Assembly (NCBI GenBank): GCA_016194745.1
Contig: JACQBA010000013.1
Span: forward strand, 256,822 to 320,821
Length of the DNA: 64,000 bases
DNA from: Elusimicrobiota bacterium
Lineage (GTDB): Bacteria > Elusimicrobiota > Elusimicrobia > UBA1565 > JACRDR01
Direction: 5' to 3'
In this document: positions 28,291-42,407 of the stretch, one piece after another
Layout of the letters: every line of letters starts with the position of its first letter
Position numbering within the stretch: position 1 is the stretch's first letter
Program-made: the position numbers and the translations under genes
The notes under the pieces: model-generated
The model's database searches: none
What the model was told of the DNA's origin: nothing
Seen by the model: the letters and a program-made list of their open reading frames with translations, nothing else

Positions 28291-28319
28291 TTGACACATC
28301 CTGCCTTTGCTCCCATACT
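28291..28319 (+). promoter_or_regulatory. Sigma70-like promoter for the sensor kinase gene
   Basis: TTGACA (28291-28296), 17-nt spacer, CATACT (28314-28319), about 55 nt upstream of ATG 28376. Confidence 0.4.
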
Positions 28320-28375
28320 TTGCGCGTGACCCGTTCTCGACGACCGTGAGGATCCGCACCCGCTTCGGGTTGGCC

Positions 28376-30160
28376 ATGAGCGGCGTGGCGGCGGCTAGCT
28401 TTCTATCCGCCTGGTTCGTCTCGTCCTTGGTCTCCGCCAACGTCATCATGGACATGCAGCGGGAGGTGCAGCGCCGGTCCGCGGGCGCCCTCGGAGCGGC
28501 CGCGGCGGCCGCGCTTCGGCCCGGCGCGACGCCGACCGACGTGCTGCGGCAGTTCGTCCGCTTTCTGCCCGCCGTGGCGCCCAACGTCGAGTACGCCTAC
28601 GTCGAGGCGGCGGACGGGAGCATCCTGATGCACACGGACCCCGCCGCCGAGCGGAGCCCCAAGGGCGCCTGGAATCCGGCTCCGGGCACCGCCGACTTCG
28701 CGAAGGCCGCCTCGGACGCCAAAGGTACCGTGGCGACGGCCCACGTGGGCGCGCCCGCCGATCTGGACGCCTTCGTCGCGCGCCGCGTCCGGAGCATCCT
28801 GCTGCCGTCCATCGTCTTGTTCGGCGCGATCGGCGCCGTCATGAGCCTCATCCTGGGCTTCGGCCTCTCGCACCTGATGGTGCGCCCGATCGCCCGGCTC
28901 GCCGAGGCGGCGGAAGAGGTGGGGCGCGGCGACCTCGCGGTCGAGGTGCCGGTCGACTCCTCCGACGAGGTCGGCGAGTTGTCCGGCCGCTTCAACGACA
29001 TGGTCGAGCGGCTGCGCTCGCTCGACGAGATGAAGGCGAAGTTCATCGCGAGCGTCTCCCACGATCTGCGCAGTCCTCTCGCGGCGATCAAGATGTCGCT
29101 GGATTTCCTGCTGCGGGACGATGCGGACAGCGACAAGATCCTGCCGCAGCACCGGCGGACGCTGGCGACCGTCGTGGACGGAGCGTCCCGGCTGAGCGTC
29201 TTCGTCTCCAACATCCTCGACGCCGCGAAGATCGACGCCGGCCGCATGGATTACCGCCTCGAGCCCGTGCGCCTGGAGACCGTCGCCCGCCGGCTCGAGG
29301 AGCTCTACGCGGCCGCCGCGCGGGAGCGCCGGATCGACGTCGATCTTTCGGTCCCGGCGGACCTTCCACCCGCGCTCGCGGACGCGGAGCGGCTCGAGCG
29401 CGTGCTGGCCAATCTCCTCTCCAACGCGCTCAAGTTCACCGGGCCCGGCGGCACGATCCGCCTGCGCGCCCGTTCGGACGGCGGCGGGCTCCTGCTCTCG
29501 GTCTCCGACACGGGCGAAGGCATCCCCGCGGAGGACCTGCCGCGGCTGTTCAAGCCGTTCGAGCAGGCGCACGGCGATGGCCGGGACGCTTCCGGCCGGC
29601 ACGGGACGGGCCTCGGGCTCTACATCGTGAAGGACTCCGTCGAGTCGATGGGAGGGACAGTCTCCCTCGAGTCGACGTACGGCAAGGGGACCACGGTGAC
29701 GGTCCGCCTTCCCGCGGCGGGCGCCGCGCCCGCGCCCGCGGGGCCGCCTCCGTCCGGAACGGTCCCGCCCCGGCCCCGGGCGGGCCGTCCCGCCAAGGTG
29801 CTCGTCCTCGACGATGATTACGCCTCGGCGGAGATCCTCAAGCAGATCCTGGAGTCGAAGGGCTACGAGCCGGTCGCGAGCCGCGACGGGCGCCGCACGC
29901 TGGAACTCGCGCTCCGGGAGAAGCCGGACGCCATCGTCATGGACGTGCAGTTGCGAACGGCGGGCGGCGTCGACATGATGCTCGCGCTGCGCGAGAACGC
30001 GGCCACGTCCAAGATCCCCGTGCTGCTCTGCTCCGCCGCGCCCGACCTGCGGGAGATCGAGCCGGCGCTCGCGGCCGGGGCGTCCTGCTTCCTGTCGAAG
30101 CCCGTGCAGGCCATGGAGCTCGACTTGCGCATCCGCGAGGCGTTGTCCGGAGGATCATGA
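28376..30160 (+). CDS. Hybrid sensor histidine kinase/response regulator (2 TM, HAMP, HisKA, HATPase_c, REC)
   Basis: H-box SVSHDLRSPLAAIK. N/G boxes in the HATPase region. C-terminal receiver with DD...D...K (KVLVLDDD ... MDVQL ... SKP). The track's TTG start at 28307 lies inside the predicted promoter, so ATG 28376 is preferred. Confidence 0.85.
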   Translation: MSGVAAASFLSAWFVSSLVSANVIMDMQREVQRRSAGALGAAAAAALRPGATPTDVLRQFVRFLPAVAPNVEYAYVEAADGSILMHTDPAAERSPKGAWNPAPGTADFAKAASDAKGTVATAHVGAPADLDAFVARRVRSILLPSIVLFGAIGAVMSLILGFGLSHLMVRPIARLAEAAEEVGRGDLAVEVPVDSSDEVGELSGRFNDMVERLRSLDEMKAKFIASVSHDLRSPLAAIKMSLDFLLRDDADSDKILPQHRRTLATVVDGASRLSVFVSNILDAAKIDAGRMDYRLEPVRLETVARRLEELYAAAARERRIDVDLSVPADLPPALADAERLERVLANLLSNALKFTGPGGTIRLRARSDGGGLLLSVSDTGEGIPAEDLPRLFKPFEQAHGDGRDASGRHGTGLGLYIVKDSVESMGGTVSLESTYGKGTTVTVRLPAAGAAPAPAGPPPSGTVPPRPRAGRPAKVLVLDDDYASAEILKQILESKGYEPVASRDGRRTLELALREKPDAIVMDVQLRTAGGVDMMLALRENAATSKIPVLLCSAAPDLREIEPALAAGASCFLSKPVQAMELDLRIREALSGGS

Positions 30161-30855
30161 AAGGCAAGAAAGGAGTCGTGCTGGTAGTCGACGATGACCC
30201 GATGATCCGGGAGATGCTCGAGCCCGCCCTCAAACAGGCCGGCTACGAGACACGCATGACGTCTAGCGCGGACAAGGCGTTCGCCGTCCTCAGGTCGGGA
30301 CCCGTGGATATTCTCATTCTCGATATCGTGCTGCCGGGGATCGACGGGATACAGATGCTCGGCCTCTTGAAGAAGGACGCGGCTACGGCGGGGCTCCCCG
30401 TGCTCATGCTGACGAACCAAGTCTCCGAACGCAGCAAAGTGTCCGGCTTGAAGACGGGCGCGGACGACTACGTGGTCAAGCCCTTCTCGATCCACGAGCT
30501 CCTGGCCCGGGTCGAGGCCCTGCTGCGGCGATCGCAGCGCTCCGGCCGCATGGACGCCGTGCTCGAGGCGGGAGGGATCGTCATGAACATCGACGCGCGT
30601 TCCGTGACGGCGAACGGCAAGAAGGTCGACCTGACCGTCATCGAGTTCGACCTGCTGGCGCTCCTGATCCGGCGGGAAGGAAACGTGCTCTCCTACCAGG
30701 CGCTTTCCGACGCGATGTCCGAAGGCGCGCGCATCATGACGTCCGAGTCGGTCTACAACCACGTCAAGAACATCCGCGCGAAGCTGGGGGGCGCCGGAAA
30801 GCGCATCGAAACAGTCCACGGCATCGGCTACAAGTTCGACCGCGACGCGAAATAA
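30157..30855 (+). CDS. OmpR-family response regulator (REC plus winged helix)
   Basis: VLVVDDD ... DILILDIVLPG ... KP receiver. C-terminal trans_reg_C (winged-helix, IGYKF). Start overlaps the kinase stop. Confidence 0.9.
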   Translation: MKGKKGVVLVVDDDPMIREMLEPALKQAGYETRMTSSADKAFAVLRSGPVDILILDIVLPGIDGIQMLGLLKKDAATAGLPVLMLTNQVSERSKVSGLKTGADDYVVKPFSIHELLARVEALLRRSQRSGRMDAVLEAGGIVMNIDARSVTANGKKVDLTVIEFDLLALLIRREGNVLSYQALSDAMSEGARIMTSESVYNHVKNIRAKLGGAGKRIETVHGIGYKFDRDAK

Positions 30856-30861
30856 CCGCGG

Positions 30862-31977
30862 TTACGGACGAGGCTCGATCAGCCGGATGTTGTCGACGGG
30901 AGCGGGAGCGGCGGGAGGCTGCGCCGGCATTTCATCCTCTCGTCGAGTCGTAACGCCGGGCGTCCGCACCGGTGCCCGCTCCTGAGGTTCCCGTGTTTCC
31001 TCTCGCGGAGGGCCGTCCCGATTGGCCACCGTCCGGTTGCGAATTTCATCGGGACGCTCCGGATGCGGCCTGAGGACCTCGCGGCTGCCGACGTCCCTCC
31101 TGGATCTTTCCACCGTCGCCTTCTGCTCGGCCGCTCTCTTGAGCGCCTCGGCTGCCGCGGCCGCCTCGGCCTCCGTGACCTGCCTTTCCAAAATCGTTTC
31201 GTCCTTAACGAAGCCTCCGTACACCTCCTCGGCCACTTGGCTCTTGGCCAGCGCCGCGCGCGGAATCTTCACCGCCACGGCTCCGGAGATCGTCGGGACT
31301 TTCGCCGTCTTCTGCGGGACGGCCGCGGCATTCTCTTCGAGCAGCGCGCGGTTCTTGAGGAAGGCGCCCACGCCAAAACTATTGCCGGCGTCCTGCGTGC
31401 TGACTGGGAAATCGAGCACTGTAGTCGGCCGGCGCGATCGCGCGGAAGCCGTCGCCTTCACCTGCGCGGACTTCCCCCCCGGCACCGCCGTTCGGAGCGT
31501 CCGCGCCGAAGGAGCTTCGCCCGATGTCGCCACGCTCGAGTTCATCGACCACGCCGCGGCCGTGCGTTTTTCGCCCGGGAGCGGCACGGAAATACCGTCG
31601 AGCGAGCGGGCTTGCCGCCCCTCCGCAGAATCCGACGCCCCGGCGACCGGCCTTCCTGTAACTTCGACGCCATGGACGAATCGGACTTTCTTGCGCTGCA
31701 AAGACCAATAGTCGCGCCCGACGCGCGAGCCGCTGAACAAAAAGGCAGTGCGCGTCCCCGCCCGCCCGGCCCACTCGCTCAGCGCGAAATGGACGCGCCG
31801 CGCCAGCGCGAGCCCCTCGGAAAGGGGCGTATTCCACCAGGTCGCGGCCGAAGGAGCCCCGCGCGTAGCGAGGGCGATCAGCCTCTTGTGATTGGCGGCG
31901 GTGACGACAAACAGCAATGCAACGATAAGCGCCGATAAATAAAAGACTTTTTTACCACTGGAGGATGATCCGAACAT
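30862..31977 (-). CDS. Hypothetical membrane-anchored protein with Pro/Glu/Arg-rich C-terminus
   Basis: N-terminal TM VFYLSALIVALLFVVTAA. No recognisable domain. Its stop is part of a 12-bp palindrome shared with the convergent regulator gene. Confidence 0.45.
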   Translation of the reverse strand: MFGSSSSGKKVFYLSALIVALLFVVTAANHKRLIALATRGAPSAATWWNTPLSEGLALARRVHFALSEWAGRAGTRTAFLFSGSRVGRDYWSLQRKKVRFVHGVEVTGRPVAGASDSAEGRQARSLDGISVPLPGEKRTAAAWSMNSSVATSGEAPSARTLRTAVPGGKSAQVKATASARSRRPTTVLDFPVSTQDAGNSFGVGAFLKNRALLEENAAAVPQKTAKVPTISGAVAVKIPRAALAKSQVAEEVYGGFVKDETILERQVTEAEAAAAAEALKRAAEQKATVERSRRDVGSREVLRPHPERPDEIRNRTVANRDGPPREETREPQERAPVRTPGVTTRREDEMPAQPPAAPAPVDNIRLIEPRP

Positions 31978-32058
31978 AGGCTTTCAAGGCCTATTCGCCT
32001 TGTCGGAGTATAACAGGGGCCCCTGGCCGTTTCAAGTGTCCTGCCGACGAATATCGAG

Positions 32059-32087
32059 GCCCCCGAAAGAGGAGAACCCTCGGGGGC
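32059..32087 (-). terminator. Stem-loop (8-bp GC stem) downstream of the paralog-array operon; possible terminator
   Basis: GCCCCCGA-13 nt loop-TCGGGGGC. No clear U-tract. Confidence 0.25.
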
Positions 32088-32112
32088 CTCCAGATAATCC
32101 GCACGGTCTTCC

Positions 32113-32730
32113 TCAACGCACCGGAACCTTCACAAGCTCGACATTGGGTCCGTCGATCACCACCGAGACATAGTACTTGTAGCCCGGGTCCGGCGCCTTG
32201 AAATTCCCCACGAGGCGCCCGTATTCCCTGACGTCGCCCGTCACCTCGTCGATTTCGACGCTGCGCTTCTTGACCTGCTCCGACAGACGCAGGTAGTCCG
32301 CCAAGGTCCCGTCGCCGTATTTCACCCGGACGATGCGCCCGCCGTCACCCGTCAGCTCGCTTTGGACTTTCTCCGCCGCGCTTTGGAATGCGGCGCCGCG
32401 CGGATCGGGCCCGAGCTGCAGATGCAGGTTCCCGCGGAAGACGCCGTCCTTATAGATGCCGACCGACTTGCACCTGCAGTCCGGAGTCATCGTGGCCGGC
32501 CCGAACCGCACCCTGTAGCGCTCCTCCAGAGCGTCCAACACGTCCTTTATGATCAAAGCCTGCTGGTGCGCCCCTCTTGCGTCCTCTAGGCGTTCCGGCA
32601 TCCGTCGGCCCAAATCCTTGGCCGCGTCCATCACTCGGGGCTCTCCGCCGTCCGCCCTGGTTCCGAGCGCCGAAAGGACCGCGCCTGCGATCACCATCCA
32701 AGTGCTAGGCTTCATCGTGCCTCCCCTCAC
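32113..32730 (-). CDS. Secreted protein of unknown family, paralog 3 of a tandem triplet
   Basis: Signal peptide. Shares TPDCxCKSVGxY, DPRG, YGDGxLADYLRxS and EVTG blocks with 32727-33332. Confidence 0.6.
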   Translation of the reverse strand: MRGGTMKPSTWMVIAGAVLSALGTRADGGEPRVMDAAKDLGRRMPERLEDARGAHQQALIIKDVLDALEERYRVRFGPATMTPDCRCKSVGIYKDGVFRGNLHLQLGPDPRGAAFQSAAEKVQSELTGDGGRIVRVKYGDGTLADYLRLSEQVKKRSVEIDEVTGDVREYGRLVGNFKAPDPGYKYYVSVVIDGPNVELVKVPVR

Positions 32731-33332
32731 TGTCGTCGCGTCGGGATCTTCAGGAACTCGATGTCCTTCCCATCATCGTTTACCGACACCCAGTAGCGAT
32801 AGCGACCGATCTCATCCTTGAAGTTGTCCACGACCTGACCGCGCTGCGTGATCTCTCCCGTGACCTCGTTGACGCCGATCTTGTTGTCCTCCCGCTTCAT
32901 TGCCCCGGAGATGCGAAGGTAGTCGGCCAAGCTCCCATCCCCGTACCGCAGGGAGACGAATTCGGCGCCGCTCCGGCTGCTCAGGTGTCGTTGGAGCTGA
33001 TCGGCCCATTTCTGAAAGTCCGTCCCGCGAGGATCCTGCAGAAGTTCCAAGTGAACGTCTCCGAGGAACTCCTTGCCTCTGTAAAGACCCACGGACTTGC
33101 AGGGGCAGTCAGGCGTAGTCGTAGGCTCACGGAACGTGATCCCGTACCGGTCTTCCAGCGCCTTGAACACGTCCCGTTCAGGCCGGAGGAGCTGGCGTTC
33201 CCGCCTCAGGTCCTCTCGACGCGTTCTCAATCGTTCGATCGCCCCGGCGCCGCGCGTCTCCGCGCTGGCCTCGCTCTCCCAGAAGACTCCCGCGGACAAC
33301 AGTACCGCCGTGATCCAAAGCACGCGCATCAT
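32727..33332 (-). CDS. Secreted protein of unknown family, paralog 2 of a tandem triplet
   Basis: Signal peptide MMRVLWITAVLLSAGVF. Conserved blocks shared with 32113-32730. ATGA overlap with the downstream paralog. Confidence 0.6.
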   Translation of the reverse strand: MMRVLWITAVLLSAGVFWESEASAETRGAGAIERLRTRREDLRRERQLLRPERDVFKALEDRYGITFREPTTTPDCPCKSVGLYRGKEFLGDVHLELLQDPRGTDFQKWADQLQRHLSSRSGAEFVSLRYGDGSLADYLRISGAMKREDNKIGVNEVTGEITQRGQVVDNFKDEIGRYRYWVSVNDDGKDIEFLKIPTRRQ

Positions 33333-33333
33333 G

Positions 33334-33795
33334 TTATCGCCTCCTGCCGCATTCCTGAATTCCGGTACGCGGGTTCGCTACGCAATCGACGTCCTGTCGC
33401 TCGGAACCCTGCCGGCGCTCGAGCTCGAGCTTCTCCCTAGCCTTGCGATTGAACAAGTCCTCTATTTTGGCGGTCCAATTCTCCATTCCTCCGGGGCCCC
33501 CGGGGGAGTAGTACGAACGGATGGTTCCGACGTATTTTCCATCCTTGTGGACCTCGAGCATGGCGCACTGGCAGCCGGCCTCGTAGGTTGTCGGTTCTAT
33601 GAGCTTTATCCCGAACTTCTCCTCGAGAGCTCGACGCGCTTTCATCGTATTCTCCCTTTGCTCGTGTTCCGATTGGACCCGTTTCCCAAGTCTATTGGTC
33701 AATTCTCCGATCGGTTCGGCGGCGTACGCCGCTCCCGACAAGAACACCGCCGCCGCGATCGCCGCCACCTTCTCGTTCCAGGAATTGCGTGTCAT
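33334..33795 (-). CDS. Secreted protein of unknown family, paralog 1 (N-terminal module only)
   Basis: Signal peptide. ALEEKFGIKLIEPTTYEAGCQCAMLEV aligns with ALEDRYGITFREPTTTPDCPCKSVGLY and ALEERYRVRFGPATMTPDCRCKSVGIY of the neighbours. Confidence 0.55.
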   Translation of the reverse strand: MTRNSWNEKVAAIAAAVFLSGAAYAAEPIGELTNRLGKRVQSEHEQRENTMKARRALEEKFGIKLIEPTTYEAGCQCAMLEVHKDGKYVGTIRSYYSPGGPGGMENWTAKIEDLFNRKAREKLELERRQGSERQDVDCVANPRTGIQECGRRR

Positions 33796-33901: not shown

Positions 33902-34552
33902 CTAGTTGACCGGAGCCGGAGGAACGGGCTGCTGGCGCTCGATCTCCTGCTTCAGGCGCTCCATCACGCGCTGGGCATGGCCGTCTTCCAAGTAAGGATC
34001 GTGCAGGAGGATGTTCATCGTCCCGTCCTCGTTGTACTTGAAGATGCTCTTGATCGGGACGAGGGCGTCCTCGGGCATCTTGTCGAAGGGGGCGGGCAAG
34101 TCCGCCTGCCGCAGGTTCATGCGCTTGTACATGAAATCGCCGGGCTCGCCGAAGTTGTCCCAGGAATAGGCGTTTTGGAGCGCGTTCTGGACGTCGCGCC
34201 GCTTCAGGAAATCGAGGAACGCCTGAGAGTTGTCGTCAGGTCCGCCCGTCGCCTTCATCATGCGGAACTGGAACAAGCGCCACGCGCCGCTCCCGTCCCA
34301 GGCGTACTGCGCCGAGTCGAGCACGAAGGGGCCCATCCGCGGGTCCCGCGCGCCCATCTTGGCGTCCTCGCGCCGCGTATCCCCGAGCGTCAGCATGAAC
34401 AACTCGGTTCTCCGCGTCGGCCCGCCGACGGGCGTCACGCTCCGCCACCCGTAATGGTGGATCGCCAGAGGAAACTCCTCCGGAGAGAAAGGCCGGGGCG
34501 CGGCCCACGCGGAGGCGGTCGACAAGAGCAGGCACAGCGAAATGAATCTCAT
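33902..34552 (-). CDS. Hypothetical secreted protein
   Basis: Signal peptide MRFISLCLLLSTASAWAAP. No recognisable domain. Confidence 0.5.
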   Translation of the reverse strand: MRFISLCLLLSTASAWAAPRPFSPEEFPLAIHHYGWRSVTPVGGPTRRTELFMLTLGDTRREDAKMGARDPRMGPFVLDSAQYAWDGSGAWRLFQFRMMKATGGPDDNSQAFLDFLKRRDVQNALQNAYSWDNFGEPGDFMYKRMNLRQADLPAPFDKMPEDALVPIKSIFKYNEDGTMNILLHDPYLEDGHAQRVMERLKQEIERQQPVPPAPVN

Positions 34553-34719: not shown

Positions 34720-35697
34720 ATGACATCTTGTGGCAGATCGTGGGCATTGGCCGCCGTACTATCCTGGGCGTCGGCTACGGCTATCGCGCAGGTGAAAGCC
34801 GCTCCCAAACCGACGAACGCGCCGACCGATCTTGTCATCATCTTCGACACGAGCGGGAGCATGGGCGACCGGCTTCCCGCCGGACGCAAACTCGACATCG
34901 CCAAGGCCGCGATGTGGAAGTTCGTCGACGCCTTGCCCAAGAGCGTCAACGTCGGCCTGGTGCGCTACAGCGACTACAACGACTGCGGCGCGAAAGTCGT
35001 ATCGCCCATCATGAAATCTTCGCCCGAAAACCGCGCCCAGTTGAGGTCCGCCATCGCCTCTCTGCGCGCCTACGGCAACACGCCAATCGGCGCCTCCCTG
35101 CGGCGCGCGACCGAGCTCCTCGAATCCTCGAAGGGCAAGAAGCGGATCGTCGTCATGACCGACGGCGAGGACACCTGCAACGAGGCGGAAGTGGGGCGCG
35201 CCTCGGACGAGGCGTGGAAAAAAGGGATCAAGGTCTACGCGATCGGCTTCGCCTTCGGCGCGCTTCCCAGCAAGACGCTGCGCCGCATCGGCATATACAA
35301 GGACGCCAACGACGACGCGCAGCTCGCTTCCGTCTTCGCGGACATCAAGAAATCCCTCGAGCGGGAACCGGGCAAGTTCGACGAGGGCAGGCGCGACCCG
35401 GCTCTCGCCGAAACCCCGCCGGTATCGCTCAAGGGCAAGAGCGGCGCCTTCAGATCGTCGGGGCCTCACGCGGGCAAGCTGTTCAAGACGCTGCAGCTCA
35501 ATTCGTCATACGAGCACCGGTTCGACGAGAACGACCGGTTCACGGTGCTCGAGCACGGCTACCACGTGCTGTTCAACGAGCAGGAGTACATGGTGGACAA
35601 GGTCGAGGTGATGCGCGTACGGCTGGAGGAAAAGTTCAGCTTCATCTACGGCGGCGTCGAGGGATTCGTTTTCGCGCAGGACGTGACGGTACGATAG
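34720..35697 (+). CDS. Secreted von Willebrand factor type A (VWA) domain protein
   Basis: Signal peptide. MIDAS residues DTSGSM ... T ... MTDGEDT. Confidence 0.8.
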   Translation: MTSCGRSWALAAVLSWASATAIAQVKAAPKPTNAPTDLVIIFDTSGSMGDRLPAGRKLDIAKAAMWKFVDALPKSVNVGLVRYSDYNDCGAKVVSPIMKSSPENRAQLRSAIASLRAYGNTPIGASLRRATELLESSKGKKRIVVMTDGEDTCNEAEVGRASDEAWKKGIKVYAIGFAFGALPSKTLRRIGIYKDANDDAQLASVFADIKKSLEREPGKFDEGRRDPALAETPPVSLKGKSGAFRSSGPHAGKLFKTLQLNSSYEHRFDENDRFTVLEHGYHVLFNEQEYMVDKVEVMRVRLEEKFSFIYGGVEGFVFAQDVTVR

Positions 35698-35722
35698 CGA
35701 GGGACTAGGGAGGCATTCAACC

Positions 35723-36448
35723 ATGTGGGCAAGGTTCACCAGGCTAATACGAGCGTTCGCCGGCTTCTTCATCAGCACGATGGAGGACCCGAAGATGATC
35801 CTCGAGCAGACGATGCGAGACATGCAGGACAAGATCCCCGTCATGAACCAGGGCTTGGCCAAGGCGCGCGGCGGGATCATCATGCTCGAGAACGAGGCGA
35901 AGCAGTATGAGCGCGAGGTCGCCCTCCTGACGGCCAAGATCAAGGCCTGCGTCCAGAACAAGGAAGAGAGCCTCGGCGCCCAATACGCGATCCGCCTCAA
36001 GAAGACGCAGGAAGCGCTCGCCCGCAACCGCGAGCAAAGCGCCGCGGCCAAAGCCGGCTACGAGTCCCTCTTGAAGATGAAGGAGAAGTTCATGCGCGAG
36101 ATGAAGGCCAAGACCGAGGAGGCGATGGCCGCCATCCGCGACGCCGAGGCCTCGAAATGGAAGGGCGAGCTCGCCGACGTCTTCGAGCAGTTCGAGGTCG
36201 CCGGTGTCGACGCCACCTACGACGAGATGCTCGGCAAGCTCCGCCAGAAGAACGTGGAGGCCGAGGGGCGTCTCGCCATGGCCGCCGACAGCATCGACTC
36301 CAAGGCCATCGAGATCGACGAGAAGGCCGAGACGCTGGAAGGCAAGGAACTCTTCAAGCAGTTCCAAATGGAGATGGGCGTCGCCGACTCCGGCGACGGC
36401 AAGAAGGAAGAAGGCAAGAAAACGATCGGCATGAAGGAGAAAGAGTAA
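35723..36448 (+). CDS. PspA/IM30 (Vipp1) family protein, ESCRT-III-like
   Basis: N-terminus MWARFTRLIRAFAGFFISTMEDPKMILEQTMRDMQ matches the PspA/IM30 start (amphipathic helix plus EDPEKMLEQ...RDM). Long coiled-coil remainder. 241 aa. Confidence 0.8.
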   Translation: MWARFTRLIRAFAGFFISTMEDPKMILEQTMRDMQDKIPVMNQGLAKARGGIIMLENEAKQYEREVALLTAKIKACVQNKEESLGAQYAIRLKKTQEALARNREQSAAAKAGYESLLKMKEKFMREMKAKTEEAMAAIRDAEASKWKGELADVFEQFEVAGVDATYDEMLGKLRQKNVEAEGRLAMAADSIDSKAIEIDEKAETLEGKELFKQFQMEMGVADSGDGKKEEGKKTIGMKEKE

Positions 36449-38158
36449 ATGGAACTCAAGCTCGGCGGCAAGATCGCGCTGCTTCTCGTCATCCTGGGCC
36501 TCGGCCTCGGAGCCCTGTACAAATTCGGCCTGATCTCGGGCACCGGATTGCCCGGGAGCGGAGGCGCCGGAGCGGCCTCCCCCATCAAGAAGGAGACCCT
36601 CGACAAGATCCGCAAGGGCGAGGAGACGCCCACCACGGCGAAGAACTACAACTTCGTCGCCAAGCAGTCGATCACCGAGGTTAAAGGCACGAGCAACTAC
36701 CAATTCAAGGACAAGACGGTCGTCTTCCCGATCAACATCTGGGGCGGCTGGGCTCCCATCATCGCGGCCAACAACGGCTTCGGCCCGAACAAGGACTCGC
36801 TGTTCTTCAAGAACTACGGATTCCTGGTGGACTTGAAGCTCATCGACGACCCGGTCGCGGCGCGCGACGCCTTCGCCTCCGGACAGTCCCACGTCCTATG
36901 GGGTACGCTCGACATGATCGCGCTCTTCGCGCCGGGCCTGTCGCGGGACTCGCGTACCACGCCGATCGTCTTCCAGCAGATCGACTGGTCGAACGGCGGC
37001 GACGGCATCGTCGTCCGGGCGCACATCAACGAGGCGAAGGACCTGCGGGGCAAGACGATCGTGCTCGCGCAGAACTCGCCCTCGCACTACTACATCCTGA
37101 GCGTGCTGACGGACGCGGGCATCTCGCCGTCGGAGGTGAACTTCAAATTCACGGCGACCGCCTTCGAGGCCGCCAAGGCCTTCGTCGACAACGCCGGGAT
37201 CGACGCCTGCGTATCCTGGGCGCCGGACATCTACAACATCGTCGACGAGAAGTACGGCGGCAAGAAGGGCGGCGTCCAAGGGGCGCGCCTGCTGACGACG
37301 ACGCGCGACGCCTCCCAGCTCATCGCCGACGTGTGGGCGGTGCGGGCCGACTTCGCGCGGGACCACAAGGACATCGTCAAGGGACTCGCGGCCGGGATCT
37401 TCAAGGGCTACGACCTGGTCAAGCAGGACGGGCCCAAGATCGCGGCGCTGATGGCGAAAGGCTTCGGCGTGTCGGTGGACGAGGCGAAGTCCATGATGAT
37501 GGACGCCCACCTGACCAATTACCTGGAGAACAAGAAGTTCTTCCTCGACAAGGACAACCCGGCGAACTTCGCGCGCACGTGGGCGGCCGCGAGCTACGTC
37601 TACAAGGCGTACGGCGCCATCGGCACGCCCACGCGGGCCGAGGAGATCGCCGACACGACGGTCCTCGGCGAGCTCGACGGGCAGTTCCCGCACCACAAGG
37701 ACGAGTACATCCCGGCCTTCAACAAGGTGAACATCTCGCGCATGAAGCTCGAGAGCCAGCCTATTCTGACGAAGTCCGTCATGATCTCGTTCCCGCCCAA
37801 CCAGTGGGCGCTCGACCGCAAGTACGACCAGAACATCGACAACGTGCTCGAGGAGTCCGCGAAGCTCTCGGGCAAGTTCGCCGCCGCGCGCATCGTGATC
37901 GAGGGCAACGTGGACACGAGCCGCAAGATCGAGTTCCAGCGCGAGGGGCCGCGCGTGTTCAAGGAGATGTCCTTGGCCGTGCAGGAGCTCAGCGAGAAGC
38001 GCGCGGAGTCGGTCAAGCAGGCGATCGTGAACAAGTTCAAGTTCAACCCGAACAAGCTCGCCGTGATCGGCAACGGCTGGGACAACCCGGCGTCGCTGAC
38101 CGACCACACGAAGAACCGCCGCGTCGAAATCAAGGTCTATCCGCCCGAGGCCGAGTAG
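36449..38158 (+). CDS. Membrane-anchored ABC substrate-binding protein (NMT1/NitT-TauT type) fused to a C-terminal OmpA-like domain
   Basis: N-terminal TM KIALLLVILGLGLGALY. NMT1/SsuA-like binding fold. C-terminal ~110 aa with OmpA-C-like blocks (LSEKRAESVKQAIV ... NRRVEIKV). ATG immediately follows the PspA TAA. Confidence 0.7.
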   Translation: MELKLGGKIALLLVILGLGLGALYKFGLISGTGLPGSGGAGAASPIKKETLDKIRKGEETPTTAKNYNFVAKQSITEVKGTSNYQFKDKTVVFPINIWGGWAPIIAANNGFGPNKDSLFFKNYGFLVDLKLIDDPVAARDAFASGQSHVLWGTLDMIALFAPGLSRDSRTTPIVFQQIDWSNGGDGIVVRAHINEAKDLRGKTIVLAQNSPSHYYILSVLTDAGISPSEVNFKFTATAFEAAKAFVDNAGIDACVSWAPDIYNIVDEKYGGKKGGVQGARLLTTTRDASQLIADVWAVRADFARDHKDIVKGLAAGIFKGYDLVKQDGPKIAALMAKGFGVSVDEAKSMMMDAHLTNYLENKKFFLDKDNPANFARTWAAASYVYKAYGAIGTPTRAEEIADTTVLGELDGQFPHHKDEYIPAFNKVNISRMKLESQPILTKSVMISFPPNQWALDRKYDQNIDNVLEESAKLSGKFAAARIVIEGNVDTSRKIEFQREGPRVFKEMSLAVQELSEKRAESVKQAIVNKFKFNPNKLAVIGNGWDNPASLTDHTKNRRVEIKVYPPEAE

Positions 38159-38167
38159 GCGGCGCTC

Positions 38168-38974
38168 ATGATGCTGGCCCCCGTGCAGTTCAAGATTCGG
38201 GGCGACTCCGCCCCGAGGAGCCGTTTCCTCCTCGGGGCGGCGAGCGTCACGATCGTCCTGCTGCTCTGGTGGCTGCTGACGGCGGGCGAAAGCGTGGAGA
38301 CGCGCTACCTCAGCCCGCAGATTCTTCCTAACCCGGTGGAAGTGCTGCAGTCGTCGGGCTCCCTGTACACGGAGCGCAACCTGACGACCAGCATCGCCTA
38401 CAGTTTCTTCCGGACCACGGTCGGCTTCCTCATCGCGGCGCTCATCGCGGTGCCGCTCGGGATCCTCATGGCGTCGTTCACGTCCGTGCGGGACTTTTTC
38501 CGCCCGCTCAGCACGATCGGCGGCTACATCCCGATCGCAGTGCTCGTCCCGCTGACGCTGTCGTGGTTCGGGCTCGGGGAGAAGCAAAAGATATTATTTC
38601 TCGCCATCGCGACGTTCGTGATGCTCCTGCCGCTGATTGTCAACGCCATCGACCAGGTGGACGACGTCTACCTGCAGACGGCCTACACGCTCGGCGCCAC
38701 CCCGTGGCAGACCGTCTTTTACGTGCTTGTCCCGGTGGCGCTCGTGGGGATATACGACTATCTCTGCTTGACCTACGGCATCGGCTGGGGATACATCATC
38801 CTCGCCGAGGTCATCGACGCGCGCTTCGGCCTTGGGAGCCTCATCATCACGTCCCAGCGTCGGGGCCCGTACGAGCACGTCTACGCGGTCTTGATCGTGA
38901 TCATACTCATCAGCATCTTGATCAACAACGCGCTCGCGTACGTCGGCAAATGGCTGTTCCCCTATCGAGAGTGA
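38168..38974 (+). CDS. ABC transporter permease (NitT/TauT family, BPD_transp_1)
   Basis: Six TM segments with the EAA-like loop, 268 aa. Confidence 0.85.
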   Translation: MMLAPVQFKIRGDSAPRSRFLLGAASVTIVLLLWWLLTAGESVETRYLSPQILPNPVEVLQSSGSLYTERNLTTSIAYSFFRTTVGFLIAALIAVPLGILMASFTSVRDFFRPLSTIGGYIPIAVLVPLTLSWFGLGEKQKILFLAIATFVMLLPLIVNAIDQVDDVYLQTAYTLGATPWQTVFYVLVPVALVGIYDYLCLTYGIGWGYIILAEVIDARFGLGSLIITSQRRGPYEHVYAVLIVIILISILINNALAYVGKWLFPYRE

Positions 38975-38976
38975 CC

Positions 38977-39876
38977 ATGGACCTTCGCGGAAAGATCGGC
39001 GGCGCCGTCTCGAGGATCCGCGGGCTGTTCGCCCGGCCGGAAGCGCCCGCGCAGGACCCGGCGCGGTTCGCCGCCTACTCGGACACGTCGATCCCGGTGA
39101 TCGAGTGCAAGAACGTCACCAAGATCTTCAAGGATCGCCGCACCGGCAAGGAATCGATCGCGCTCGAGAACGTGTCGTTCACGATCGAAGATCTTCCCAA
39201 TATGGGCGAGTTCATCACGATCCTCGGCCCCTCGGGCTGCGGGAAGAGCACGCTGCTGAACATCATCTCCGGCCTGGAGCCGCACTACCCGCAGACCAAG
39301 GGCGAGGTGAAGGTCAAGGGCGCCCCGGTGGCGGGCCCGGGCTCCGACCGCGGCATGGTTTTCCAGAGCTACTCCTCGTTCCCGTGCTACACCGTGCTCG
39401 AGAACGTCGCGTTCGGGCTCATGCTCAAGGGCGCGCCGGAGAAGGAGCGCGAGGACATCGCGGCGGATTGGATCAAGAAGGTTAAGCTCGCCGGATTCGA
39501 GCGGAAATACCCCAAAGAGCTCAGCGGCGGCATGCGCCAGCGTGTCGCGCTCGCCCGGACGCTCGCGGTCAATCCGAGGATCGTTCTCATGGACGAACCC
39601 TTCGGCGCGCTCGACCGCATCACCCGCTGGGAGATGCAGGACCTCCTCATCGAACTATGGGAGAAGGTCCAGGCGACCGTGTTCCTCGTGACGCACGACA
39701 TCCCCGAAGCGGTGTATCTGGGCGACCGGCTGTTCTTGATGACGCCGCGGCCCGGCCGCCTGACCGAGATCGTGAAGCTCCCCCGGCCCACGGAGAAGGC
39801 CGCCGAGATGCAGCGCACCTCCCGCTTCGCGGAGACCGTCAACGAGATCAGCCGCAAGGTGGAGTCGATCCACTAG
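38977..39876 (+). CDS. ABC transporter ATP-binding protein (NitT/TauT family)
   Basis: Walker A GPSGCGKST, signature LSGGMRQRVALAR, Walker B IVLMDEPFGALD, H-loop VTHD. MVFQ...FPCYTVLENVAFGL is typical of SsuB/TauB-like ATPases. The track ORF start at 38563 is a frame run-on through the permease, so the real start is ATG 38977. Confidence 0.9.
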   Translation: MDLRGKIGGAVSRIRGLFARPEAPAQDPARFAAYSDTSIPVIECKNVTKIFKDRRTGKESIALENVSFTIEDLPNMGEFITILGPSGCGKSTLLNIISGLEPHYPQTKGEVKVKGAPVAGPGSDRGMVFQSYSSFPCYTVLENVAFGLMLKGAPEKEREDIAADWIKKVKLAGFERKYPKELSGGMRQRVALARTLAVNPRIVLMDEPFGALDRITRWEMQDLLIELWEKVQATVFLVTHDIPEAVYLGDRLFLMTPRPGRLTEIVKLPRPTEKAAEMQRTSRFAETVNEISRKVESIH

Positions 39877-39879
39877 CCC

Positions 39880-40704
39880 ATGGCCGACAAGATCAACTAC
39901 GTCAAGGAGGCGTTCAAGCGCCAGGAGAACCTGATCACCCTGGCCGGACTGGGCGTCGCCGGCGTGGCGTTCAATGCGGGATTCCTCCTCTTGGGCGGCG
40001 CCCTCGAGCTGGCCTATCTCTGGCTCATCTCGTCGAATCCGCGGTTCCAGCGCGTCGTGAATTCCGAGAAGAGCCAAGCCCGCCTGCGCTTCGACCAGTC
40101 CGAGAAGGACAAGCTCGCCGCCGCCCTGCCGATGAACGAGCATCGCCGCTTCCAGGAGCTCCAAGGCGTGCGCCAGCGCGTCTACGAGGCCTGGCAGGCC
40201 CGGGACGCGGTCACACAGTCGCTCCTGCAGCCGAGCGTCGACAAGCTGGACTACCTTTTGGATACTTTCCTGCGCGCCCAAGTGACCCTGCACCACATGC
40301 GGTCCCACCTGGCGTCCAGCGACCGGGCGTTCCTTCAGAAGCAGGCGCAGATGATCGAGGCGGAGATCGCGCGGGGGCTCACGGACAAGGTCCGCGAGGT
40401 GAAGGAGCGCAACTTGGACATTCTCAAGCAGCGCCTGGCGAAGCTCCAGAAGCTGCAGGAGGACCAGGAAATCGTCAAGACGCAGCTCGATACCCTCGAG
40501 AACGCGATCAAGTTCGTGAGCGACCAGTCCGTATCGCTCACGGATCCTCAGCAGATCACGGGCCAGATCGACCGGGCGGTCTCCGAGGTAGGCGACACGG
40601 AGCGCTCTCTGCAAGAAGTCGAATCGTTTCTCGGCATGCAGGAAGGCGTCGACAAGAAACAGGAGGGCGCGGCGCGGCAGCAGGCGCAGCAGAAACAAGA
40701 ATGA
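39880..40704 (+). CDS. Membrane-anchored coiled-coil protein, unknown function
   Basis: One N-terminal TM/hairpin (LITLAGLGVAGVAFNAGFLLLGGALELAYLWLI), then ~200 aa of predicted coiled coil and a Gln-rich tail. Confidence 0.55.
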   Translation: MADKINYVKEAFKRQENLITLAGLGVAGVAFNAGFLLLGGALELAYLWLISSNPRFQRVVNSEKSQARLRFDQSEKDKLAAALPMNEHRRFQELQGVRQRVYEAWQARDAVTQSLLQPSVDKLDYLLDTFLRAQVTLHHMRSHLASSDRAFLQKQAQMIEAEIARGLTDKVREVKERNLDILKQRLAKLQKLQEDQEIVKTQLDTLENAIKFVSDQSVSLTDPQQITGQIDRAVSEVGDTERSLQEVESFLGMQEGVDKKQEGAARQQAQQKQE

Positions 40705-42407
40705 GCCTCGAAGGATATCCCGGCTGGGCGAAGGACCTGGCGGACCGCTACATGAGCGGAGCGTCGTCGCTGTTCTTGATCTACGGGAACGTCAACGACT
40801 GGGTGCCCCTGCGCGAGGGCGGCAAGGTGCGCTTCGTGTCCCTGCCCGAGTTCCTCAAGACCGCGGTCTTCGGCAAGCGGGAGATGGTCCTCCAGTACGA
40901 CCAAGGCAGCGGCATCACCATGAGCCGCGACATGGTCACCGATTTCTACAAGGTCGTCGAGGCGATGGACGCCGCCGCCGGCACCGGCTACGCCAAGCGC
41001 CTGCCGAAGGCTCCCGCCGAGGCCCTCGCGGTGATCGACCGCTACCTGCGCACCCGCGCCTCGGCCAAGGGCGGCACCGCGGCCATCATCGACTACGCCC
41101 ACATGGTGGCGCCGCGTAGCGACGTCCAGTTCATGAGCCAGGAGGATTTCCGGACGATCATCCTTCTGCAGAAGTGGGCGAACGATCCGGAGCTCTCCCG
41201 CTCCGACGTGACGATCGCGCTGGTGACCGCGAACCTCCAGGACTTGAACGAGGCGATCATCAACAATCCGTTCACCTCGAAGGTCGAGATTCCGCTCCCC
41301 GACGAAGCCGAACGGCTCGAGTACATCCAATCCACCGCCCTTCAGGTCAAGTACGAAGGCCTGACGCCGGAGACCTTCGCCCGGCAGACGAACGCGCTGT
41401 CGCGGGTCGACATCGAAGTCATCCTGCGCGAGGCGCAGCGGGTGGGCAAGCTCGACCTGGGCTTCGTCGCCAAGAAGAAGAAGGAACTCATCGAGAAGTC
41501 CTGCTTCGGTCTGCTCGAGTTCCTGGAGCCGCGGGCGACCCTCGATGCGGTCCAGGGACAGGGCGCCGCCAAGCAGCGCTTGCGCGAGGACATCGAGCTC
41601 ATCAAGAAGGGGCAATGGGACGCGCTGCCCATGGGATACCTGTTCTGCGGCCCGGTCGGCACGGGCAAGACATATCTCGCGACCTGCGCAATCGGCGAAC
41701 TCGGCGTGCCCTGCGTCCAGCTCCTTAATTTCCGCTCCAAATGGGTCGGAGCGACGGAAGGCAACCTCGAGAAGATCCTGCTCACGCTGCGCGCCCTCGG
41801 CCCGGTCGGGGTCATCATCGACGAGGCCGACGCCTTCATGGGCAGCCGCTCGCAGGACGGCGACAGCGGCACGTCCAACCGCATCTTCGCCCAGTTCGCG
41901 AGCCAGATGGGAGACACCAAGTACCGCGGCAAAATCCTATGGTTCCTCCTGACCTGCAGACCCGACCTGCTTCCCGTGGACATCAAGCGGCAAGGACGCG
42001 TCGAGATCCACATCCCCCTCTTTTATCCGCAGACCGACGCCGAGAAGGGAGAACTCTTCGTGGCCATGTCGAAGAAGCAGAAATGGCCGATCGACGCCAA
42101 GGACGTCGACCCCTCGAGCTTCAATGGCAAGAAATTGTCGGGAGCCGACATCGAGGCCATCCTCGTCAGCGCCAAGCGCAAGAGCCTCCTCGACGGCGAC
42201 GCCAAGGAGAAGAAGCACTACCTGAAGCTCGCGGCCACGGACTTCATCCCCGCGACGAGCTCTTCCGAGGTCCAATACCAGGAGCTCGCCGCGGTCGTGG
42301 AATGCACGGACCGAGGCTTCCTCCCGGAGATCTACCGGAAGGCCGACCGCCTCGAGCTGCTCAAGGAGTTCAACCGCCTCAAGCTCGTCCTCGGAGAGGC
42401 CGCATGA
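40701..42407 (+). CDS. AAA-family ATPase (classical clade) with a degenerate N-terminal AAA-like domain
   Basis: C-terminal domain has Walker A GPVGTGKT, Walker B VGVIIDEADAF and second region of homology TCRPDLLPVDIKRQGRVEIHIPLFYP. The N-terminal ~270 aa lack a P-loop but keep an AAA-like segment (TIALVTANLQDL...FTSKVEIPLPDEAERLEYI). ATGA overlaps on both sides. Confidence 0.8.
   Translation: MSLEGYPGWAKDLADRYMSGASSLFLIYGNVNDWVPLREGGKVRFVSLPEFLKTAVFGKREMVLQYDQGSGITMSRDMVTDFYKVVEAMDAAAGTGYAKRLPKAPAEALAVIDRYLRTRASAKGGTAAIIDYAHMVAPRSDVQFMSQEDFRTIILLQKWANDPELSRSDVTIALVTANLQDLNEAIINNPFTSKVEIPLPDEAERLEYIQSTALQVKYEGLTPETFARQTNALSRVDIEVILREAQRVGKLDLGFVAKKKKELIEKSCFGLLEFLEPRATLDAVQGQGAAKQRLREDIELIKKGQWDALPMGYLFCGPVGTGKTYLATCAIGELGVPCVQLLNFRSKWVGATEGNLEKILLTLRALGPVGVIIDEADAFMGSRSQDGDSGTSNRIFAQFASQMGDTKYRGKILWFLLTCRPDLLPVDIKRQGRVEIHIPLFYPQTDAEKGELFVAMSKKQKWPIDAKDVDPSSFNGKKLSGADIEAILVSAKRKSLLDGDAKEKKHYLKLAATDFIPATSSSEVQYQELAAVVECTDRGFLPEIYRKADRLELLKEFNRLKLVLGEAA

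Follow-up and report, generated by a model that had tools for sequence, protein, structure and literature searches.

A tandem array of three paralogous, predicted exported proteins sharing a rare CxC module in an Elusimicrobiota genome

A 64,000-nucleotide (nt) stretch of an Elusimicrobiota bacterium metagenome-assembled genome (386-kb contig JACQBA010000013.1; the whole stretch is referred to here as the window) contains three consecutive minus-strand genes, pA, pB, and pC. Their products are true paralogues that share an N-terminal module (N-module) of about 60 residues with a conserved Cys-X-Cys (CxC) pair. Judged from the sequence searches described below, the CxC-module family is nearly an orphan, extremely rare, and previously undescribed. 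Our tentative reading, to which we give a probability of about 0.3, is that pA, pB, and pC are periplasmic proteins in which a putatively exposed CxC pair may act as a reactive dithiol/disulfide or as a soft-metal site, which the subunits of a hetero-oligomer might have in common. The features of the array are as follows.

33334-33795, minus strand: pA, 153 amino acids (aa), MBI3549693.1; signal peptide, predicted charged helix, N-module with CQC, and a short basic tail with C138 and C149
33809-33800, minus strand: ribosome binding site of pA, GGAGAGGAGG
33445-33645, minus strand: N-module of pA, residues 51 to 117 (alignments A2 and A3; hidden Markov model [HMM] match of 95 bits)
33565-33573, minus strand: CQC codons of pA (C75 and C77)
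32727-33332, minus strand: pB, 201 aa, HY078_11690; signal peptide, predicted charged helix, N-module with CPC, and C-terminal module (C-module)
33345-33340, minus strand: ribosome binding site of pB, AGGAGG, within the last codons of pA
32976-33176, minus strand: N-module of pB, residues 53 to 119, predicted as helix, three strands, helix (alignment A3 and AlphaFold2)
33099-33107, minus strand: CPC codons of pB (C76 and C78), at a predicted loop-to-strand junction
32730-32975, minus strand: C-module of pB, beta-rich
32113-32715, minus strand: pC, 200 aa, MBI3549691.1; signal peptide, predicted charged helix, N-module with CRC, and C-module
32113-32730, minus strand: longest open reading frame (ORF) of pC, 205 aa, beginning at GTG 32730
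32726-32720, minus strand: ribosome binding site of pC, GGGGAGG, 4 nt upstream of ATG 32715
32347-32547, minus strand: N-module of pC (alignment A3 and HMM match)
32470-32478, minus strand: CRC codons of pC, placed by reading the Cys positions in the sequence
32116-32346, minus strand: C-module of pC, beta-rich, with motifs YGDGxLADYLR, EVTG, NFK, and YxYxVSV, otherwise found in pB only
32051-32095, minus strand: GC-rich hairpin of 14 bp directly past the pC stop, without a clean U-tract (inverted repeat I4)

A first-pass annotation of this DNA had described the array as three consecutive genes for paralogous proteins of an unrecognised family, each with a signal peptide, the N-module, and a conserved CxC pair, with a C-module common to the two longer members only. 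Formal alignment bore out the paralogy, with E-values far below the limit of 0.01 set beforehand. pB and pC were 44% identical over 166 aa (E = 5e-47), and with the signal peptides removed all three pairs were still significantly similar (pA-pB, E = 5e-6; pA-pC, E = 1.4e-6; pB-pC, E = 2e-47), each with a Smith-Waterman score above that of every one of 2,000 shuffles. Mutual identity among the three proteins was 25 to 44%. pA was also recovered by profile A5, whose input was pB, pC, and one distant relative but not pA. The division into modules held as described: the N-module was recovered in all three proteins by alignment and HMM match, the similarity of pA to pB and pC was confined to this module, and no significant similarity was found between the pA tail and the C-module of pB and pC. 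The C-module could not be aligned to the N-module profile, and its origin by internal duplication of the N-module was rejected on that ground. No DNA-level repeats were found between the three genes; this rules out recent duplication or gene conversion and indicates that the duplications are old. A family profile search found no fourth copy within the window.

Each N terminus consisted of a basic n-region, a hydrophobic core of 14 to 15 residues, and a small-x-small site, as judged by inspection and a Kyte-Doolittle hydropathy profile, and the predicted signal peptides were thus retained for all three proteins. The candidate cleavage sites (marked by a slash) were AYA/A, ASA/E, and TRA/D, and no lipobox cysteine was present in pA, pB, or pC. 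By these same readings, all three have the makeup of Sec (type I) substrates, and we infer that they would be exported via Sec to the periplasm of a diderm cell. A charged segment, predicted to be helical, follows the signal peptide and precedes the N-module, for which the consensus was ALE-x-(R/K)-(Y/F)-G-(I/V)-x-(F/L)...C-x-C...(Y/H)-(R/K)-(D/G)-G-x-(F/Y)-x-G. The CxC pair was present in all three proteins. It is the sole cysteine pair of pB and of pC, and pA has the additional residues C138 and C149.

The three ORFs were confirmed in the same orientation, and the 1-nt gap described between pA and pB was read directly from the stop and start codons (TAA at 33336-33334 and ATG at 33332). The 4-nt overlap described between pB and pC did not stand, since it holds only if pC begins at GTG 32730, and no comparable Shine-Dalgarno site lies in front of that codon. 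The pC start is most likely ATG 32715, because GGGGAGG lies 4 nt upstream and two independent public gene calls, both starting at ATG, give a protein of 200 aa; the spacing between pB and pC is then most likely an 11-nt gap. By sequence reading, a strong Shine-Dalgarno site precedes each of the three genes. From the spacing, the per-gene ribosome binding sites, and the downstream hairpin, pA, pB, and pC probably form one transcription unit, which probably ends at the hairpin (RNA fold of −41.3 kcal/mol; z = −2.1). A promoter-like TTGAAA-17-TATACT lies past the hairpin, at 32035-32007, ahead of the next gene. Locus tags HY078_11690 and HY078_11695 belong to the source genome of the window. GC content at the three codon positions of the array genes followed the pattern GC3 > GC1 > GC2, which supports real coding of pA, pB, and pC. 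GC3 was 0.71 to 0.82 in the array genes versus 0.86 to 0.95 in the flanking conserved genes, and the lower value fits horizontal acquisition or weak codon selection.

Relatives of the array proteins proved to be very few. Word-index homology searches covering 5.8 billion protein clusters were run with pB and with alignments of the three proteins and of 7 modules; they returned at most self matches. An exhaustive HMM search of 1.84 billion representatives (E ≤ 1e-3) returned nine matches, namely, pA, pB, pC, and six further proteins, P0004 to P0009, among which only P0004 and P0009 were credible relatives by sequence. P0004 (254 aa; E = 4e-8) carries three modules in tandem behind a signal peptide, and CxC is missing from the first of them. 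P0009 (241 aa; E = 7e-4) has one module with CNC, which aligned to the family at 95.8% in hhalign (E = 8e-9), and has no signal peptide. Thus, CxC is present in the three array proteins, in P0009, and in two of the three P0004 repeats. The stringing together of three copies in one lipoprotein-like protein elsewhere argues that the module is an independent unit. P0004 and P0009 come from two unrelated metagenomes, their gene neighbourhoods had nothing in common with the array locus, and each family member formed a singleton cluster. The P0004 gene (L003, 2993-3757) encodes a lipobox-like VVSC within the signal peptide, and it adjoins an HU gene, a histone-fold (CBFD_NFYB_HMF) gene, and a gene for a 342-aa protein without a Pfam match.

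The other matches of the exhaustive search were weak. P0005 and P0006 are low-complexity repeat proteins and were not accepted as relatives. P0007 (2,951 aa) matched at E = 1e-4. P0008 (753 aa) contains Cys-rich repeats, and its CPC-containing hairpin aligned to the CxC hairpin of the module with an ambiguous hhalign probability of 51%; this likeness may reflect convergence or a very distant link. The repeated motif of P0008 is W..(D/N)CPC(R/K)KV.I(F/Y)RDG, and the protein has a dockerin-like C terminus. Scanning 185,579 species genomes for the CxC motif yielded 17 pattern matches, none of them a relative.

The array genes might instead be decaying or spurious ORFs of a high-GC genome, a reading that would suit the lack of homologues in related genomes and a GC3 below that of the neighbours. 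Long-term purifying selection would nevertheless be required to keep the reading frame, signal peptides, Shine-Dalgarno sites, and motifs at 25 to 44% identity. The codon-position pattern and the distant relatives in two unrelated metagenomes also speak against such ORFs, and we consider this disfavoured reading very improbable.

Searches of Pfam, NCBIfam, PHROGs, PADLOC, and PDB sequences with the members and the family consensus gave no valid match, and the leftovers from the profile libraries (DUF6927, sCache_like, MetW, and WH_Rok) were all sub-threshold noise. With no characterised domain in the profile libraries and only the three proteins and two relatives from the exhaustive search, the family remains unrecognised, as first described. 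pC carries the NCBI name "DUF1163 domain-containing protein". Its residues 58 to 92 matched DUF1163 (PF06651) over 35 of 68 positions with a score of 21.0 bits, identical to the gathering threshold, and no match was found in pA, pB, P0004, P0009, or the consensus sequences at E ≤ 1 to 10. We regard this name as a threshold artefact, being a half-profile match that no paralogue or consensus repeats, and it probably spread into nr as such. Within the searched literature, DUF1163 was mentioned only in an Arabidopsis paper. DUF6927 (PF21992) matched pA only, at 14.3 bits (E = 0.039) versus a 27-bit cut-off, and did not match the consensus. The PDB matches, to lipocalin and CBS-domain entries, were marginal (E = 0.2 to 0.3) and were rejected.

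Two AlphaFold2 runs, made with 5- and 7-sequence alignments, gave poor models (predicted local distance difference test [pLDDT] scores of 47 and 51), with scores of 53 to 81 in the N-module core only. In these models the N-module was predicted to run helix, three strands, helix, with CxC at the junction of a loop and strand 2 (in model 1 the strand begins at pB residue 76), and a long helix was predicted ahead of the module at pB residues 24 to 63. Foldseek returned no match with E ≤ 1e-3.

Some features of the predicted fold recall known periplasmic modules, and it is conceivable, if rather doubtful, that the proteins carry a divergent module for protein-protein interaction or ligand binding, belonging to a known fold class (STN/FecR_C-, PepSY-, or PAS/Cache-like). 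They would then be accessory sensors or regulators for an adjacent hybrid kinase/OmpR-type regulator or for a nearby PspA envelope-stress operon, with the CxC pair incidental. FecR_C (PF16344) and STN domains are likewise small periplasmic alpha/beta modules, and a local helix-strand match was seen between DVFKALEEAYGVTFKF and DVFKALEDRYGITFRE. A metagenome contig scan found no family member, and its sole match was the FecR_C domain of a FecR-type anti-sigma factor (L011, 1463-2548), which shares DVFKALEEAYGVTFKF with pB. This domain aligned to the family at 84.7% in hhalign over 24 columns, a match that is selection-biased, as the sequence had been selected by pattern. The L011 domain was rejected as a relative, since the scan was pattern-driven and a relationship was supported by none of the HMMs, whether those of the family or the Pfam model for FecR_C. 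The two also differ: only 24 columns match, HMMs gave no match in either direction, FecR_C has no CxC, and the strand order predicted after the helix may be different. FecR_C and STN profiles matched neither the members nor the consensus. The local match is a lead only. PepSY and PAS/Cache domains share with the predicted N-module a helix followed by an antiparallel sheet and the possibility of tandem repetition, and the D/E-x-TG-E/D turn of the C-module recalls PepSY. The sCache_like and PAS-like structural matches were weak; for PAS and sCache-like (PF16736) domains there was no profile match above cut-off and no significant structural match.

The best-documented parallel for the CxC pair itself is offered by the curli accessory protein CsgC of the periplasm: its CxC, likewise placed where a loop passes into a strand, is invariant and forms a redox-active disulfide (E0' of −139 mV; PMC3173608). 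Like CsgC, a small Sec-exported periplasmic protein with CxC, the array proteins combine a signal peptide with this motif, as does P0004. In the mechanism that we favour, pA, pB, and pC would be soluble periplasmic or envelope proteins, and CxC would be a functional site, serving either in thiol-disulfide exchange or as a thiolate ligand pair for Cu(I)/Zn. The three diverged paralogues would work jointly, perhaps in a hetero-oligomer that brings the CxC pairs of two subunits face to face, and the C-modules would confer specificity for a partner or ligand. Three considerations make CxC likelier to be a reactive or ligand site than a disulfide that holds the fold: cysteines separated by a single residue are too close to staple a fold, a P0004 repeat that has lost CxC still keeps the module, and the pair provides the sole cysteines of pB and pC. 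The tight packing of three diverged paralogues, an arrangement suited to co-expression, suggests joint action.

Several points weigh against this mechanism. Both AlphaFold2 models are poor, and the exposure and chemistry of CxC are accordingly putative. No CsgC or curli Pfam match was found in the proteins or in the scanned neighbours, which leaves the CsgC analogy as one of motif. CsgC is all-beta and Ig-like, belongs to a curli operon, and has a nonpolar Leu or Val between the cysteines, whereas the array proteins are predicted to be alpha/beta, with helices flanking the strands, have no curli context, and carry Pro, Arg, Gln, or Asn at that position within the family. The module also occurs in P0009, which has no signal peptide, and is hence not confined to the periplasm. 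The proposed hetero-oligomer follows purely from the gene arrangement, and no gene neighbourhood was conserved among the three module-carrying loci.

The same cysteines could also serve a structural purpose. pA, pB, and pC might be envelope proteins that form covalent homo- or hetero-oligomers (e.g., via their charged N-terminal helices) through inter-chain CxC disulfides, with no catalytic or metal chemistry. The tight packing and probable cotranscription of the paralogues, the long helix predicted ahead of the module in pB, and the lack of a distant intrachain partner for the cysteines of pB and pC would all be in keeping with such an assembly. On inspection, however, the helix is highly charged with a weak heptad pattern; P0009 keeps CxC without a signal peptide and would hence sit in a reducing compartment; and the source lineage may be anaerobic. 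We therefore hold a structural assembly to be unlikely. A bolder extension of the redox/metal-site reading is that the CxC module, roughly 60 residues long, is a domain new at the level of its fold, with paralogous subunits or tandem repeats (as in P0004) building an inter-module metal or redox centre. This would amount to an as yet undescribed kind of thiol-based cofactor or redox-relay protein in the periplasm, confined to a few uncultured lineages, and we think it distinctly unlikely to be correct.

To place the array in its genomic context, the neighbouring genes were compared with related loci. The flanking features are as follows.

34720-42407, plus strand: VWA-PspA operon of six genes, divergent from and right of the array (L005-L010)
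33902-34552, minus strand: upstream exported orphan, 216 aa as called and 228 aa as the longest ORF
30862-31977, minus strand: downstream protein, 371 aa (NCBI call, 351 aa), with an N-terminal membrane anchor
28307-30855, plus strand: hybrid histidine kinase and OmpR-type response regulator, overlapping by 4 nt and convergent with the array side

The operon encodes a VWA protein, PspA, a substrate-binding protein fused to an OmpA-like domain, an ABC permease, an ABC ATPase, and a 916-aa AAA+ protein, and it may represent an undescribed PspA-linked envelope system. It is kept in six other Elusimicrobia metagenome-assembled genomes, with amino acid identities of 83 to 88% for the fusion protein, about 76 to 81% for PspA, and 58 to 67% over the full length for the VWA protein. 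The fusion protein (569 aa) is unusual in joining an NMT1/SsuA-like substrate-binding protein to the OmpA-like domain. Two of the related loci included about 8 kb of upstream sequence, and both had unrelated genes at the position of the array; neither contained homologues of the three array genes, of the orphan upstream or the protein downstream of them, or of the two-component system. Since the operon is kept while these two loci lack the array, the array is an accessory, lineage-specific insertion outside the conserved VWA-PspA-ABC-AAA+ operon, in agreement with the accessory nature proposed at first pass. The adjacency of the array to this operon is not conserved, and position therefore indicates no functional link.

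The absence of the array from these two loci also bears on a further possibility, that its products are diversified inhibitor or immunity proteins, each paralogue directed against a different exported enzyme or toxin, in an array that grew by duplication under diversifying selection. Such a history would account for how fast the paralogues diverged and how patchily they are distributed. Tandem small exported paralogues of low mutual identity (25 to 44%) and an atypical GC3 would also be expected of such a system. Against it, no toxin, secretion-system, or polymorphic-toxin genes adjoin the array, and PADLOC and PHROGs gave no match. In addition, tblastn against phage and plasmid records gave no match at E ≤ 1 and no relatives were found on viral contigs, so these searches do not mark the array as phage, plasmid, or defence-island cargo. 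An inhibitor or immunity function is thus improbable.

A segment of the upstream exported orphan, RRDVQNALQNAYSWDNFGEPG, is similar to the module helix ERDVFKALEDRYGITFREPT. Its alignment to the family was not significant (hhalign E = 0.15), and its status as a fourth paralogue is not supported by this comparison; loss of CxC from a very old fourth copy could account for the resemblance. The downstream 371-aa protein had no family match. It has a long Ala/Arg/Pro-rich low-complexity region, a net charge of +16, and its own promoter-like site at 32035-32007. The hybrid kinase is 617 aa as the longest ORF, with the domain order HAMP-HisKA-HATPase-receiver, and the kinase/OmpR pair was not found in the related loci examined.

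In uncultured lineages, exported orphan families are no rarity. As far as the sequence comparisons reach, the novelty here applies to the sequence family only, which amounts to five proteins among about 15 billion predicted proteins; the array is real and is so far a lineage-specific curiosity without sign of a surprising mechanism. The analysis corrects the misleading database name DUF1163 for pC and places the array as an accessory insertion beside a conserved Elusimicrobia VWA-PspA-ABC-AAA+ envelope operon. Should the CxC module turn out to be a new domain for redox chemistry or metal binding, it would extend the small set of building blocks known from thiol-based proteins of the periplasm and would found a new family of Pfam type.

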